Origin: Escherichia coli O157:H7
Lineage (GTDB): Bacteria; Pseudomonadota; Gammaproteobacteria; Enterobacterales; Enterobacteriaceae
Direction: 5' to 3' (one strand)
Length of the DNA stretch: 64,000 nt
NCBI RefSeq assembly: GCF_013167455.1
Contig: NZ_CP038328.1
A model generated the notes under the pieces. It saw only the letters and a list, made by a program, of their open reading frames with translations, had not been told where the DNA came from and did not search any database. Below are positions 1,355 to 45,960 of the stretch, piece by piece. The first letter of the stretch is position 1, and every line of letters begins with the position of its first letter. The translations under genes were made by a program, and so were the position numbers.

Positions 1355-2335
1355 ATGGCACAACGAGTACAGCTCACTGCAACGGTGTCCGAAAACCAAC
1401 TCGGTCAACGCTTAGATCAGGCTTTGGCCGAAATGTTCCCGGATTATTCACGTTCGCGAATAAAAGAATGGATCCTCGACCAGCGCGTGCTGGTTAACGG
1501 CAAACTTTGTGATAAGCCGAAAGAAAAAGTATTGGGTGGCGAGCAGGTTGCCATCAACGCTGAGATTGAAGAAGAAGCGCGTTTTGAACCGCAGGATATC
1601 CCGCTGGATATCGTCTATGAAGATGAAGATATCATCGTCATTAATAAACCGCGCGATCTGGTGGTACATCCTGGCGCGGGTAACCCGGATGGCACGGTAC
1701 TGAATGCGTTACTTCATTACTATCCGCCCATTGCTGATGTACCGCGTGCAGGCATCGTCCATCGTCTGGATAAAGACACCACTGGCCTGATGGTTGTGGC
1801 AAAAACCGTTCCGGCTCAGACGCGTTTAGTCGAATCTTTGCAAAGGCGTGAAATTACTCGTGAGTATGAAGCGGTGGCAATTGGTCATATGACCGCTGGC
1901 GGTACAGTAGATGAACCAATCAGCCGCCACCCGACCAAACGTACTCACATGGCGGTGCATCCGATGGGCAAACCGGCGGTGACTCACTATCGCATCATGG
2001 AACACTTCCGTGTGCACACGCGTCTGCGGTTGCGTCTGGAAACTGGACGTACGCACCAGATCCGCGTGCATATGGCCCATATCACTCATCCGCTGGTGGG
2101 CGATCCGGTTTATGGTGGCCGTCCGCGCCCGCCAAAAGGTGCTTCGGAAGCGTTTATCTCCACGCTGCGTAAATTTGACCGCCAGGCGCTTCATGCAACC
2201 ATGCTGCGTCTTTATCACCCGATCTCCGGTATCGAAATGGAATGGCATGCGCCTATTCCACAAGATATGGTGGAGCTGATTGAGGTGATGCGCGCCGATT
2301 TCGAAGAGCATAAAGATGAAGTGGACTGGTTATGA
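1355..2335 (+). CDS. rluD: 23S rRNA pseudouridine synthase RluD
   Basis: 326-aa ORF with S4 domain and RluA-family catalytic motif (HRLDKDTTGL). Confidence 0.95.
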   Translation: MAQRVQLTATVSENQLGQRLDQALAEMFPDYSRSRIKEWILDQRVLVNGKLCDKPKEKVLGGEQVAINAEIEEEARFEPQDIPLDIVYEDEDIIVINKPRDLVVHPGAGNPDGTVLNALLHYYPPIADVPRAGIVHRLDKDTTGLMVVAKTVPAQTRLVESLQRREITREYEAVAIGHMTAGGTVDEPISRHPTKRTHMAVHPMGKPAVTHYRIMEHFRVHTRLRLRLETGRTHQIRVHMAHITHPLVGDPVYGGRPRPPKGASEAFISTLRKFDRQALHATMLRLYHPISGIEMEWHAPIPQDMVELIEVMRADFEEHKDEVDWL

Positions 2336-3063
2336 GTAAGCTGATTGTCCCGCAGTGGCCGCTGCCAAAAGGTGTTGCGGCCTGTAGCTCTACTCGTATC
2401 GGCGGCGTGAGCTTGCCCCCGTATGACTCGCTCAACCTCGGTGCCCATTGTGGCGATAACCCGGATCACGTTGAGGAGAATCGCAAGCGACTTTTTGCTG
2501 CGGGCAATTTGCCTTCTAAACCGGTCTGGCTTGAGCAGGTACACGGCAAAGATGTGCTTAATCTTACTGGCGAACCTTATGCCTCAAAACGAGCAGATGC
2601 CTCTTATAGCAATACGCCCGGCAGGGTTTGCGCAGTGATGACTGCCGACTGCCTCCCTGTGCTGTTTTGCAATCGAGCGGGAACGGAAGTCGCCGCCGCT
2701 CATGCTGGCTGGCGTGGACTGTGCGCAGGCGTGCTGGAAGAGACAGTTTCCTGTTTTGCTGATAATCCAGAAAATATTCTCGCCTGGTTAGGGCCGGCAA
2801 TTGGCCCACGCGCGTTTGAAGTGGGGGCGGAGGTTCGCGAGGCGTTTATGGCAGTAGACGCCGAAGCGAGTACAGCTTTCATTCAGCATGGTGATAAGTA
2901 TCTGGCGGACATTTATCAGCTTGCCCGGCAGCGTCTGGCGAACGTGGGTGTTGAGCAAATTTTCGGCGGCGACCGTTGTACATATACGGAAAATGAGACT
3001 TTCTTCTCTTATCGTCGCGACAAGACCACCGGTCGTATGGCAAGTTTCATTTGGCTGATATAA
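2332..3063 (+). CDS. yfiH: YfiH/PgeF family laccase-domain protein (purine nucleoside phosphorylase / peptidoglycan editing factor)
   Basis: 243-aa ORF; start overlaps the rluD stop in an ATGA junction. Confidence 0.9.
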   Translation: MSKLIVPQWPLPKGVAACSSTRIGGVSLPPYDSLNLGAHCGDNPDHVEENRKRLFAAGNLPSKPVWLEQVHGKDVLNLTGEPYASKRADASYSNTPGRVCAVMTADCLPVLFCNRAGTEVAAAHAGWRGLCAGVLEETVSCFADNPENILAWLGPAIGPRAFEVGAEVREAFMAVDAEASTAFIQHGDKYLADIYQLARQRLANVGVEQIFGGDRCTYTENETFFSYRRDKTTGRMASFIWLI

Positions 3064-3124
3064 CCTAAAGAATCAAGACGATCCGGTACGCGTGATTTTC
3101 TTTTCACATTAATCTGGTCAATAA

Positions 3125-3155
3125 CCTTGAATAATTGAGGGATGACCTCATTTAA
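3125..3155 (+). promoter_or_regulatory. Candidate sigma32 heat-shock promoter for clpB
   Basis: ccttgaa (3125..3131), 14-nt spacer, cctcattta (3146..3154); resembles the CTTGAAA / CCCCATnT sigma32 consensus. Not validated. Confidence 0.45.
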
Positions 3156-3192
3156 TCTCCAGTAGCAACTTTGATCCGTTATGGGAGGAGTT

Positions 3193-5766
3193 ATGCGTCT
3201 GGATCGTCTTACTAATAAATTCCAGCTTGCTCTTGCCGATGCCCAATCACTTGCACTTGGGCACGACAACCAATTTATCGAACCACTTCATTTAATGAGC
3301 GCCCTGCTGAATCAGGAAGGGGGTTCGGTTAGTCCTTTATTAACATCCGCTGGCATAAATGCTGGCCAGTTGCGCACAGATATCAATCAGGCATTAAATC
3401 GTTTACCGCAGGTTGAAGGTACTGGTGGTGATGTCCAGCCATCACAGGATCTGGTGCGCGTTCTTAATCTTTGCGACAAGCTGGCGCAAAAACGTGGTGA
3501 TAACTTTATCTCGTCAGAACTGTTCGTTCTGGCGGCACTTGAGTCTCGCGGCACGCTGGCCGACATCCTGAAAGCAGCAGGGGCGACCACCGCCAACATT
3601 ACTCAAGCGATTGAACAAATGCGTGGAGGTGAAAGCGTGAACGATCAAGGTGCTGAAGACCAACGTCAGGCTTTGAAAAAATATACCATCGACCTTACCG
3701 AACGAGCCGAACAGGGCAAACTCGATCCGGTGATTGGTCGTGATGAAGAAATTCGCCGTACCATTCAGGTGCTGCAACGTCGTACTAAAAATAACCCGGT
3801 ACTGATTGGTGAACCCGGCGTCGGTAAAACTGCCATCGTTGAAGGTCTGGCGCAGCGTATTATCAACGGCGAAGTGCCGGAAGGGTTGAAAGGCCGCCGG
3901 GTACTGGCGCTGGATATGGGCGCGCTGGTGGCTGGGGCGAAATATCGCGGTGAGTTTGAAGAACGTTTAAAAGGCGTGCTTAACGATCTTGCCAAACAGG
4001 AAGGCAACGTCATCCTGTTTATCGACGAATTACATACCATGGTCGGCGCGGGTAAAGCCGATGGCGCAATGGACGCCGGAAACATGCTGAAACCGGCGCT
4101 GGCGCGTGGTGAATTGCACTGCGTAGGTGCCACGACGCTTGACGAATATCGCCAGTACATCGAAAAAGATGCTGCGCTGGAACGTCGTTTCCAGAAAGTG
4201 TTTGTTGCCGAGCCTTCTGTTGAAGATACCATTGCGATTCTGCGTGGCCTGAAAGAACGTTACGAATTGCACCACCATGTGCAAATTACTGACCCGGCAA
4301 TTGTTGCAGCGGCGACGTTGTCTCATCGCTACATTGCTGACCGTCAGCTGCCGGATAAAGCCATCGACCTGATCGATGAAGCAGCATCCAGCATTCGTAT
4401 GCAGATTGACTCAAAACCAGAAGAACTCGACCGACTCGATCGCCGTATCATCCAGCTCAAACTGGAACAACAGGCGTTAATGAAAGAGTCTGATGAAGCC
4501 AGTAAAAAACGTCTGGATATGCTCAACGAAGAACTGAGCGACAAAGAACGTCAGTACTCCGAGTTAGAAGAAGAGTGGAAAGCAGAGAAGGCATCGCTTT
4601 CTGGTACGCAGACCATTAAAGCGGAACTGGAACAGGCGAAAATCGCTATTGAACAGGCTCGCCGTGTGGGTGACTTGGCGCGGATGTCTGAACTGCAATA
4701 CGGCAAAATCCCGGAACTGGAAAAGCAACTGGAAGCCGCAACGCAGCTCGAAGGCAAAACTATGCGTCTGTTGCGTAATAAAGTGACCGACGCCGAAATT
4801 GCTGAAGTGCTGGCGCGTTGGACGGGGATTCCGGTTTCTCGCATGATGGAAAGCGAGCGCGAAAAACTGCTGCGTATGGAGCAAGAACTGCACCATCGCG
4901 TAATTGGTCAGAACGAAGCGGTTGATGCGGTATCTAACGCTATTCGTCGTAGCCGTGCGGGGCTGGCGGATCCAAATCGCCCGATTGGTTCATTCCTGTT
5001 CCTCGGCCCAACTGGTGTGGGGAAAACAGAGCTTTGTAAGGCGCTGGCGAACTTTATGTTTGATAGCGACGAGGCGATGGTCCGTATCGATATGTCCGAG
5101 TTTATGGAGAAACACTCGGTGTCTCGTCTGGTTGGTGCGCCTCCGGGATATGTCGGTTATGAAGAAGGTGGCTACCTGACCGAAGCGGTGCGTCGTCGTC
5201 CGTATTCCGTCATCCTGCTGGATGAAGTGGAAAAAGCGCATCCGGATGTCTTCAACATTCTGTTGCAGGTACTGGATGATGGGCGTCTGACTGACGGGCA
5301 AGGGAGAACGGTCGACTTCCGTAATACGGTCGTCATTATGACCTCTAACCTCGGTTCCGATCTGATTCAGGAACGCTTCGGTGAACTGGATTATGCGCAC
5401 ATGAAAGAGCTGGTGCTCGGTGTGGTAAGCCATAACTTCCGTCCGGAGTTCATTAACCGTATCGATGAAGTGGTGGTCTTCCATCCGCTGGGCGAACAGC
5501 ACATTGCCTCGATTGCGCAGATTCAGTTGAAACGTCTGTACAAACGTCTGGAAGAACGTGGTTATGAAATCCACATTTCTGACGAGGCGCTGAAACTGCT
5601 GAGCGAGAACGGTTACGATCCAGTCTATGGTGCACGTCCTTTGAAACGTGCTATCCAGCAGCAGATCGAAAACCCGTTGGCACAGCAAATACTGTCTGGT
5701 GAATTGGTTCCGGGTAAAGTTATTCGCCTGGAAGTTAATGAAGACCGGATTGTCGCCGTCCAGTAA
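3193..5766 (+). CDS. clpB: Chaperone ClpB (Hsp100 disaggregase), 857 aa
   Basis: ATG at 3193 after a ggagg RBS; N-terminus [18 protein letters not shown]; two AAA+ modules with Walker A motifs GEPGVGKT and GPTGVGKT. Confidence 0.95.
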
Positions 5767-6208: not shown

Positions 6209-7750
<1,542 letters not shown>

Positions 7751-7835
7751 CCTTAAAGAACTGTACTTTGCAGTGCTCACACAGATTGTCTGATAGAAAG
7801 TGAAAAGCAAGGCGTCTTGCGAAGCAGACTGACAC

Positions 7836-7911
7836 GTCCCCTTCGTCTAGAGGCCCAGGACACCGCCCTTTCACGGCGGTAACAGGGGTTCGAATCCCCT
7901 AGGGGACGCCA
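7836..7911 (+). tRNA. gltW: tRNA-Glu in the 16S-23S spacer
   Basis: 76-nt GTCCCCTTCGTCTAGAGGCCCAGGACACCGCCCTTTCACGGCGGTAACAGGGGTTCGAATCCCCTAGGGGACGCCA; TTCACGG anticodon loop context; encoded CCA end. Confidence 0.95.
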
Positions 7912-8104
7912 CTTGCTGGTTTGTGAGTGAAAGTCGCCGACCTTAATATCTCAAAACTCATCTTCGGGTGATGTTTGAGATATTTGCTCTTTAAAAATCT
8001 GGATCAAGCTGAAAATTGAAACACTGAACAACGAAAGTTGTTCGTGAGTCTCTCAAATTTTCGCAACATGATGATGAATCGAAAGAAACATCTTCGGGTT
8101 GTGA

Positions 8105-11007
<2,903 letters not shown>

Positions 11008-11099
11008 ACAACGCCGAAGGTGTTTTGGCGGATGAGAGAAGATTTTCGGCCTGATACAGATTAAATCAGAACGCAGAAGCGGTCTGATAAAACAGAATT

Positions 11100-11219
11100 T
11101 GCCTGGCGGCCTTAGCGCGGTGGTCCCACCTGACCCCATGCCGAACTCAGAAGTGAAACGCCGTAGCGCCGATGGTAGTGTGGGGTCTCCCCATGCGAGA
11201 GTAGGGAACTGCCAGGCAT
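11100..11219 (+). rRNA. rrfG: 5S ribosomal RNA
   Basis: TGCCTGGCGGCC...GAACTGCCAGGCAT, 120 nt. Confidence 0.95.
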
Positions 11220-45776: not shown

Positions 45777-45960
45777 AGTGGCTCATTCACCGACTTATGT
45801 CAGCCCCTTCGGGACGTGCTACATAAAATTCGAATGACGCACAACAAGGTGCCTGCCGTCCAACTTCTGATATCAGCGTAGCTATATCAACCATCGGGCG
45901 AAACGTCGAGTTAGGCACCGCCTTATTCCATAACAAAGCCGGGTAATTCCCGGCTTTGTT
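45777..45960 (+). ncRNA. glmY: GlmY small regulatory RNA (184 nt)
   Basis: From AGTGGCTCATTCACCGACTTATGTCAGCCCCTTCGGGACG... to the terminator hairpin aaagccgggtaattcccggctttgtt; sits between purL and glrK. Confidence 0.8.

Follow-up and report, generated by a model that had tools for sequence, protein, structure and literature searches.

The stretch of DNA analyzed here (the window; 64,000 nucleotides, or 64 kb, from Escherichia coli O157:H7) carries on its plus strand the yfiH (pgeF) gene, at 2332 to 3063 with its TAA stop codon at 3061 to 3063, followed by the chaperone gene clpB, at 3193 to 5766, which codes for a protein of 857 aa. Both genes are placed by the list of open reading frames and by the RefSeq and K-12 annotations; the mechanical ORF call for clpB begins at an in-frame ATG at 3181, and the annotated start is the ATG at 3193. 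The spacer between the end of the yfiH ORF and this annotated ATG spans 3064 to 3192, and its length of 129 nt agrees with the original prediction. A scan of the yfiH-clpB interval revealed no convincing intrinsic terminator. The locus was found in 5425 of the 5426 complete E. coli genomes.

The interval is ryfD, an sRNA gene that has already been catalogued. As annotated, this gene is 143 nt long (3071 to 3213, plus strand) and takes in the entire yfiH-clpB spacer along with the first 21 nt of clpB. The Rfam family RF02768 (Ysr155_RyfD) matches 3074 to 3212 on the plus strand with 125.3 bits (the gathering score is 42 bits) and an E value of 1e-27, covering model positions 1 to 140 of 140. 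The K-12 gene b4609 (2734153 to 2734295, minus strand) maps to 3071 to 3213 on the plus strand of the window with 100% identity across ryfD, and the single base by which the window strain differs from K-12, at 3258, lies outside it. In sequence, strand, ends, and gene context, the locus is the same as RyfD of K-12 and RF02768 and as Ysr155 of Yersinia. Full-length matches to RF02768 were also obtained in all nine of the further loci tested, from seven genera, and the yfiH-ryfD-clpB context is the same in loci of other genera. The original suggestion of a ryfD sRNA adjacent to clpB is thereby borne out exactly here, on the clpB strand. The RF02768 match and the identity to K-12 ryfD contradict the notion that the interval lacks homology to any annotated sRNA, and the published Term-seq 3′ end, together with small-RNA reads ending at it (see below), contradicts the absence of a discrete short transcript.

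The sigma32 heat-shock promoter of clpB, which is said to have been reported by Squires and by Kitagawa in 1991, is nested within the body of ryfD. Its −35 element, CTTGAA (3126 to 3131, plus strand), and its −10 element, CCTCATTT (3146 to 3153, plus strand; 7 of 8 positions match the consensus CCCCATNT), are evident in the sequence, and published work employs it as the clpB sigma32 promoter. The original prediction had proposed a sigma32-like promoter of the form ccttgaa-N14-cctcattta, and it is indeed located at 3125 to 3154 (ccttgaa at 3125 to 3131, 14 nt, and cctcattta at 3146 to 3154) and is the known clpB promoter. Taking a sigma32 promoter to be a −35 CTTGAA(A), a spacer of 13 to 15 nt, and a −10 CCCCATNT, the site qualifies with its N14 spacer; CTTGAA-N13-15-CCNCATNT has this one match on both strands of the 64-kb window, with 0.04 expected from shuffled sequences. 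The primer extension of Squires 1991, as cited in PMC6941012, gave adjacent clpB starts, with A as the primary and G as the secondary one. We infer that these correspond to 3161 and 3162 on the plus strand, 7 to 8 nt past the −10 element, with an alternative AG at 3164 to 3165; the leader would then be about 32 nt long. The locus thus shares with the known clpB promoter the CTTGAA-N14-CCTCATTT arrangement upstream of clpB and the adjacent A/G starts. The homologue set used below was gathered by requiring the sigma32 motif, so that conservation of the promoter is circular in that set, which covers motif-bearing taxa. Both same-strand units, ryfD and the clpB heat-shock promoter, are already known; we found no statement of the nesting of the one in the other in the literature examined.

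RyfD is predicted to fold stably (MFE, −52 kcal/mol; z score, −5.6) and to be closed by a helix of about 23 bp that joins the sequence following yfiH to the beginning of the clpB coding region. The 5′ arm of this closing helix (3075 to 3098, plus strand) comprises an outer conserved part of 11 to 12 bp, AAGACGAUCCGG, and an inner, clade-variable anti-AUG part, ACGCGUGAUUU, whereas the 3′ arm (3188 to 3210, plus strand) comprises the last base of the clpB Shine-Dalgarno (SD) sequence, the AUG (3193 to 3195), and clpB codons 2 to 6 (3196 to 3210). The SD itself, GGAGG (3184 to 3188, plus strand), is separated from the annotated ATG by 4 nt, and its GGAG (3184 to 3187) is predicted to pair with an anti-SD CUCC at 3157 to 3160 on the plus strand. 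A small hairpin, UGAGG-GAUGA-CCUCA (3136 to 3150, plus strand), also lies in RyfD and overlaps the spacer and −10 element of the sigma32 promoter; it was flagged as terminator-like by the scan but is weak, and its five pairs are 99.4% paired in 108 sequences.

The closing helix is kept in 109 Enterobacterales homologues, and both the outer 11 helix pairs and the anti-SD are paired in 108 of 108 sequences. The anti-AUG sequences differ between clades, and since this inner arm proved unalignable by MAFFT, per-sequence folding and shuffling were used instead. One-sided changes in the helix are all A to G or C to U on the 5′ arm, and produce G·U pairs, which in a transcript of the opposite strand would be mismatched; these G·U-only substitutions and the Rfam and Term-seq strand all point to the plus strand, and an RNA from the minus strand is therefore rejected. 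Two-sided covariation is minimal, since the 3′ arm encodes protein and does not vary: it amounts to a compensatory AU-to-GC change at one pair in 2 sequences, and the observed score was reached by 28 of 500 shuffles.

The coding side of the helix has a corresponding signature, in that the synonymous sites of clpB codons 2 to 6 are nearly invariant. Among 114 unique sequences, these codons are CGT in 113, CTG in 114, GAT in 112, CGT in 114, and CTT in 114; free variation sets in from codon 7 on (ACC in 61 and ACT in 51), and six codons are in use for Leu20. This observation suggests that codons 2 to 6 are under constraint at the nucleotide level.

The 3′ end of RyfD is supported by published data. 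A dominant 3′ end maps by Term-seq to K-12 position 2734153, which is 3213 in the window, with three entries in the curated table covering three growth conditions and a Rho score of 1.28, and the dominant species among the abundant intracellular small-RNA reads shares this 3′ terminus. Taking an intrinsic terminator to be a GC-rich hairpin with a U-tract within 7 to 9 nt, the scan found none at this end; the helix ends at 3210, the RNA ends at 3213, and the downstream sequence is AAUAAAUUCC. With neither a U-tract nor a terminator in the scan, we reject intrinsic termination at 3213. As the end lies 3 nt beyond the helix and lacks a U-tract, it probably arises by trimming back to the helix. 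RNase III was also considered as the maker of the RyfD ends and rejected, as they lie outside the helix and not within it; the text of the RNase III target paper makes no mention of clpB, ryfD, or yfiH. We propose that the helix of about 23 bp clamps both ends of RyfD and would thereby fix and protect them.

For the 5′ end, we found a candidate sigma70 extended −10 element, TGATATAAC (3056 to 3064, plus strand), that overlaps the yfiH stop codon and has a weak putative −35-like hexamer, ATGGCA (3037 to 3042, plus strand; 4 of 6 positions), 16 nt upstream of it. The pattern TGNTATAAY occurs in just two copies in the window, one of which stops 7 nt short of the annotated 5′ end of RyfD; in an extended −10 promoter, a TGn-TATAAT-like element is expected 6 to 8 nt ahead of a primary 5′ end. 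The pattern recurs in 95 fetched loci, nearly always once per locus and next to the RyfD match, with about a quarter of loci having the weaker TGAGATAAC in place of TGATATAAC; this conservation is confounded by coding constraint, as the candidate −10 shares bases with the stop and last codons of yfiH and the −35-like hexamer lies within yfiH codons. Nearly all homologues have the same distance between the yfiH stop and the helix, and indels occur in other parts of the spacer. A sigma70 scan returned no promoter; it demands a T at position 6 of the −10 element and so cannot see TATAAC. Searches for the ryfD transcription start site gave no match in the supplements of the Cappable-seq paper, by U00096.3-based coordinate prefixes, or in those of Kim 2012, by U00096.3-based and older-assembly prefixes and by gene name.

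These features are consistent with RyfD initiating at its own sigma70 extended −10 promoter, TGATATAAC. The end at 3071 could instead be a processing site: RyfD would then have no promoter of its own, and read-through rluD-yfiH(-clpB) transcripts would be cut in A/U-rich single strands on either side of the helix and trimmed to the helix-protected core of 143 nt. The missing intrinsic terminator between yfiH and clpB and the empty sigma70 scan fit such a scheme, as do the two annotated RyfD ends, which lie 3 to 4 nt beyond the helix in A/U-rich sequence, and the 3′ end, whose lack of a U-tract and low Rho score are features that the source paper ascribes to processing. Nevertheless, we consider it unlikely: the extended −10 is spaced from the annotated 5′ end just as a promoter element should be and recurs in the 95 fetched loci, the stop-to-helix spacer keeps its length whereas indels occur elsewhere between yfiH and clpB, and the T requirement at position 6 is the sole reason that TATAAC was left out of the scan. 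Far less probable still is an origin of RyfD as a fragment of the sigma32 clpB transcript, by premature termination or by processing of the 5′ UTR. RyfD does run on the same strand as clpB and overlap its leader and start codon, and the Yersinia paper mentions attenuation or processing as a possible origin of sRNAs located over the 5′ ends of genes. However, both the annotated 5′ end (3071) and the start of the Rfam match (3074) precede the sigma32 start by about 90 nt; with a leader of about 32 nt, a product ending at 3213 would measure about 53 nt and not 143; and RyfD of Yersinia is constitutive and independent of temperature. The suggestion of a leader-derived sRNA therefore stands to the extent that RyfD overlaps the leader region, but RyfD does not derive from the heat-shock leader: its 5′ end comes about 90 nt ahead of the inferred sigma32 start.

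A transcript begun at the candidate sigma70 promoter would contain both segments that face the clpB initiation region, and computed accessibilities differ accordingly between the two kinds of RNA. The median probability of the AUG being unpaired is 0.12 in upstream-started RNA versus 0.68 in sigma32-started RNA, and the cost of opening positions −15 to +15 is 29.7 kcal/mol versus 14.1 kcal/mol, with a minimum difference of 7.7 across 109 homologues. Shuffling of the clade-variable segment raises the unpaired probability from 0.16 to 0.44, and the natural value lies below the shuffled mean in 108 of 109 sequences. The SD is predicted to be merely 26% unpaired even in the sigma32 transcript. These calculations suggest that, in cis, the helix and the CUCC:GGAG pairing would bury the SD, AUG, and codons 2 to 6 of clpB in transcripts begun upstream of the sigma32 start, so that such transcripts should be untranslatable for clpB; the sigma32-initiated mRNA alone would lack both blocking segments and be translated. 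Long-range fold-back inhibition of translation is known from the fbi element of hok mRNA and from the self-inhibitory rpoS leader. By analogy, a distant upstream segment would here too pair with the initiation region and keep it closed; in hok and rpoS, however, processing or sRNAs lift the block, whereas the relief proposed here would be an internal promoter that omits the inhibitory arm.

RyfD may act in trans as well. A nearly invariant segment, UUAAUCUCCAGUAGC (3152 to 3166, plus strand), whose columns are invariant in the homologue alignment, is predicted to be able to pair with the 5′ end of lpp mRNA. As unrestricted folding of the RyfD-lpp duplex gave unrealistically long duplexes, 20-nt windows and a background distribution were used instead; the resulting duplex has 15 bp and one bulge at −21.4 kcal/mol, a stability reached by only 3 of 18,280 background 20-mers. 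An interaction of RyfD with the lpp 5′ UTR has been reported by TRIC-seq, and on this model the segment is a strong candidate for the seed. RyfD was among the most abundant sRNAs in Salmonella ProQ coimmunoprecipitation and was termed an “abundant ProQ-associated sRNA”; an interaction with RaiZ and overexpression phenotypes have been reported, and in Yersinia, where the transcript was validated by Northern blotting, its level is independent of temperature and hfq. Like the ProQ-associated sRNAs RaiZ and SibA to SibE, RyfD is Hfq independent, highly structured, and ProQ enriched. RaiZ, however, originates from a 3′ UTR and has a terminator at its end, whereas RyfD extends over the start of a gene and its 3′ end does not resemble a terminator.

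The abundance of RyfD, its ProQ enrichment and overexpression phenotypes, its lpp and RaiZ interactions, and the strong predicted seed duplex could also mean that the helix and the codon constraint serve solely a stable, ProQ-binding sRNA that acts in trans on lpp and others, with occlusion of the clpB start being incidental and nonregulatory. We regard this restriction to trans action as rather doubtful, for it leaves unexplained both the continued pairing of the inner variable segment with the AUG region through sequence turnover and the anti-SD pairing in 108 of 108 sequences; moreover, roles in cis and in trans are not mutually exclusive. The base-paired SD and AUG in the leader of a heat-shock gene might equally recall an RNA thermometer, in which the helix would open at heat-shock temperature for clpB translation from upstream-initiated transcripts. 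Thermometers are marginally stable hairpins that occlude the SD and AUG and melt at 37 to 45°C, but the helix here is about 23 bp in an RNA with an MFE of −52 kcal/mol, its computed opening cost falls from 28.6 kcal/mol at 37°C to 26.6 kcal/mol at 42°C and amounts to 23.2 kcal/mol even at 50°C, and the nested sigma32 promoter already provides the heat response. No Rfam match to thermometer families (ROSE, fourU, and similar) was found at the locus. Given this lack of a match and the cost at 42°C, we reject the thermometer as extremely improbable.

The arrangement that we favor, and consider probable, is one of two nested units in which RyfD has its own promoter, a helix that clamps its ends, occlusion of the clpB start in cis, and lpp pairing in trans. 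As a further and more tentative model, for which the case falls somewhat short of even, the ryfD/clpB overlap may be a translation gate operated by promoter choice: upstream transcripts would be silent for clpB and yield stable RyfD, the nested sigma32 promoter, starting just past the anti-SD, would give the only translatable clpB mRNA, and the need at the RNA level would freeze the synonymous sites of clpB codons 2 to 6 across Enterobacterales. We found no description of such a gate at ryfD/clpB in the literature examined.

In itself, the locus amounts to an annotated sRNA and a textbook heat-shock promoter found again, which makes the finding an ordinary one. The nested promoter, the start-burying helix, the constraint on codons 2 to 6, and the candidate lpp seed may be useful to those who study RyfD. 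Taken together, these observations point to straightforward mutational experiments on the role of RyfD, which may be that of a regulator, of an insulator of ClpB synthesis, or of both.

The 129-nt spacer between the end of yfiH (ORF 2332-3063, +) and the annotated clpB ATG (3193, +), its length being that given in the original prediction, carries a known small RNA gene. An Rfam search matched 3074-3212 (+) to the full RF02768 model (Ysr155_RyfD) at 125.3 bits (E = 1e-27; gathering score, 42), and ryfD of K-12 MG1655 (b4609; 2734153-2734295, on the clpB strand) maps to 3071-3213, across the whole of which the window is identical to K-12. The original prediction thus placed ryfD correctly, and the gene runs on the clpB strand. 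Both the observation and its interpretation hold, but ryfD is already known: it has an annotation in K-12 and a curated family in Rfam. A 501-nt query was found in 5425 of 5426 complete E. coli genomes, and nine further loci, tested from Yersinia, Serratia, Rahnella, Hafnia, Klebsiella, Pantoea, and Chimaeribacter, each have a full-length RF02768 match next to clpB. Seven homologous loci (L006, L009, L019, L031, L039, L040, and L069) extend far enough to show a Phe_leader (pheL) match in Rfam, and all of them have one, ~3.3 to 3.6 kb from RyfD, indicating that the synteny of the pheA-to-clpB neighborhood is conserved across Enterobacterales. Elsewhere in the window, AsrC (antisense of rseC; 29261-30092, -), rncO (rnc leader; 32876-33090, +), ohsC (antitoxin sRNA; 36503-36579, -), and GlmY (45777-45924, +) were matched in Rfam above the gathering score. 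A complete rRNA operon (6209-11217; rrnG by K-12 synteny) lies just 3' of clpB, with 16S at 6209-7750, a tRNA at 7836-7908, a StyR-44 match at 7989-8097 in the spacer just ahead of 23S (8105-11007), and 5S at 11102-11217.

The plus-strand RNA is predicted to fold at -52 kcal/mol (z = -5.6), with the ends of RyfD joined in a closing helix of ~23 bp (3075-3086 with 3199-3210 and 3088-3098 with 3188-3198), so that the sequence right after yfiH pairs with the last Shine-Dalgarno (SD) base, the AUG, and codons 2 to 6 of clpB. An anti-SD CUCC (3157-3160) pairs with the bases GGAG (3184-3187) of the SD GGAGG (3184-3188, +). A mechanical ORF call from an in-frame ATG at 3181, 12 nt 5' of the annotated start, gives 861 rather than 857 aa; we place the start at 3193 because this SD and the K-12 annotation favor it.

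The sigma32 promoter of clpB has reportedly been known since 1991. The sigma32-like motif predicted earlier is present (ccttgaa at 3125-3131, 14 nt, and cctcattta at 3146-3154), and a consensus search for CTTGAA-N13-15-CCNCATNT returned it as the single site on both strands of the 64 kb, against 0.04 expected. Primer extension (Squires 1991, as relayed in PMC6941012) gave adjacent starts, A primary and G secondary, which fit A3161 and G3162, 7 to 8 nt 3' of the -10 element (last base at 3153), a mapping that we infer. Hence, the clpB heat-shock promoter sits inside ryfD, and the mRNA that it yields begins just past the anti-SD, has a leader of ~32 nt, and does not include the 5' arm of the helix. 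The suggestion that RyfD is leader derived does not hold, as RyfD begins ~90 nt upstream of that mRNA and so is not a fragment of it.

A single scan of a genome collection for the promoter motif yielded 118 loci that are genuine, all from Enterobacterales, and 2 chance matches; since the motif was required, its conservation in this set is circular, and the flanks are informative. The 11 outer helix pairs are paired in every instance across 108 distinct sequences, against 33 to 56% in slid controls. One-sided changes fall on the 5' arm and are all A to G or C to U; they give G.U pairs in the plus-strand RNA and would be A.C mismatches on the opposite strand. A genuine compensatory change (AU to GC) is seen in just two sequences, so that covariation in the formal sense is weak, the observed score being reached in 28 of 500 shuffles. 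The inner 5' arm varies by clade, yet its pairing with the AUG region is kept: when it is shuffled, the unpaired probability of positions -3 to +6 increases from 0.16 to 0.44, and 108 of 109 sequences have a natural value lower than their shuffled mean. On the 3' side, synonymous sites of clpB codons 2 to 6 (3196-3210) are almost invariant among 114 distinct Enterobacterales sequences (CGT in 113, CTG in 114, GAT in 112, and CGT and CTT in 114 each), and ATGCGYCTGGAYCGTCTTAC is matched by all 109 distinct homologues. Variation is free from codon 7 (ACC in 61, ACT in 51), the boundary coinciding with the end of the closing helix; at Leu20, six codons are in use.

For RNA begun at the RyfD 5' end (long form), the median probability that the AUG is unpaired is 0.12, versus 0.68 for RNA begun at the sigma32 site (short form); opening -15 to +15 is predicted to cost 29.7 +/- 3.5 versus 14.1 +/- 1.7 kcal/mol, the smallest difference being 7.7. 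From these models, transcripts begun upstream would be translationally silent for clpB, and only sigma32-initiated ones would be open. An RNA thermometer is unlikely, as warming from 37 to 42 C lowers the E. coli opening cost only from 28.6 to 26.6 kcal/mol.

That a discrete short transcript exists, as the original prediction supposed, is borne out by the Term-seq data of Adams et al. 2021 (PMC7815308), whose curated table of 3' ends, covering three growth conditions, has three entries for a very strong end at 2734153 (window 3213) with a Rho score of 1.28, under their threshold of 2, and by the dominant RyfD read of a small-RNA sequencing study, which ends at the same position. This end lies 3 nt beyond the helix, with AAUAAAUUCC next to it; the sequence has no U-tract, a terminator scan made no call here, and dependence on Rho is low. 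Most likely, the 3' end would be formed by trimming as far as the helix, perhaps under protection by ProQ. For the 5' end, TGATATAAC (3056-3064), an extended -10 motif whose last base is 7 nt ahead of 3071, is a candidate ryfD promoter. It is one of only two TGNTATAAY sites in the window (the second is TGATATAAT, 32216-32224, -) and recurs in 95 of the fetched loci, nearly always just once and next to the RyfD match, a conservation confounded by its overlap with the yfiH stop and last codons. The 11 nt between that stop and the helix are unchanged in length in nearly all homologues, indels falling elsewhere in the intergenic spacer. Alternatively, RyfD could be processed from a rluD-yfiH transcript reading through into the ryfD/clpB region. 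Such read-through is plausible, as the sole terminator-like call on the plus strand ahead of clpB is a weak hairpin at 3136-3150; we give this origin of RyfD a low but appreciable probability. The rluD (1355-2335) and yfiH ORFs share 4 nt (2332-2335).

RyfD may also act in trans. Segment 3152-3166 (UUAAUCUCCAGUAGC), almost invariant among the aligned homologues, can pair with lpp -38 to -23, which would be the very 5' terminus of lpp mRNA, in a predicted duplex of 15 bp with one bulge (-21.4 kcal/mol) that only 3 of 18,280 background 20-mers from the window equal. The prediction is consistent with a strong RyfD-lpp 5' UTR interaction reported by TRIC-seq in a 2025 preprint; the invariance has several possible causes because these bases also serve the sigma32 promoter/start region and the anti-SD. 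RyfD, termed an abundant ProQ-associated sRNA, counts among the most abundant sRNAs in Salmonella ProQ coimmunoprecipitates (PMC8136791) and ranks fifth among intracellular small ncRNAs by small-RNA sequencing; in Yersinia, its expression is constitutive and depends on neither hfq nor temperature (PMC3672283). It elutes in fractions of high molecular weight, with no sign of association with ribosomes, and its overexpression lowers both biofilm formation and swarming. In the available literature, we found no explanation of RyfD production or of its relation to the expression of clpB. What we infer beyond these reports, and regard as modestly new, is that the clpB heat-shock promoter is nested in ryfD, that the clpB start would be occluded by fold-back of the upstream sequence, that the synonymous sites of the first clpB codons are frozen, and that ryfD may have a promoter of its own at the end of yfiH.
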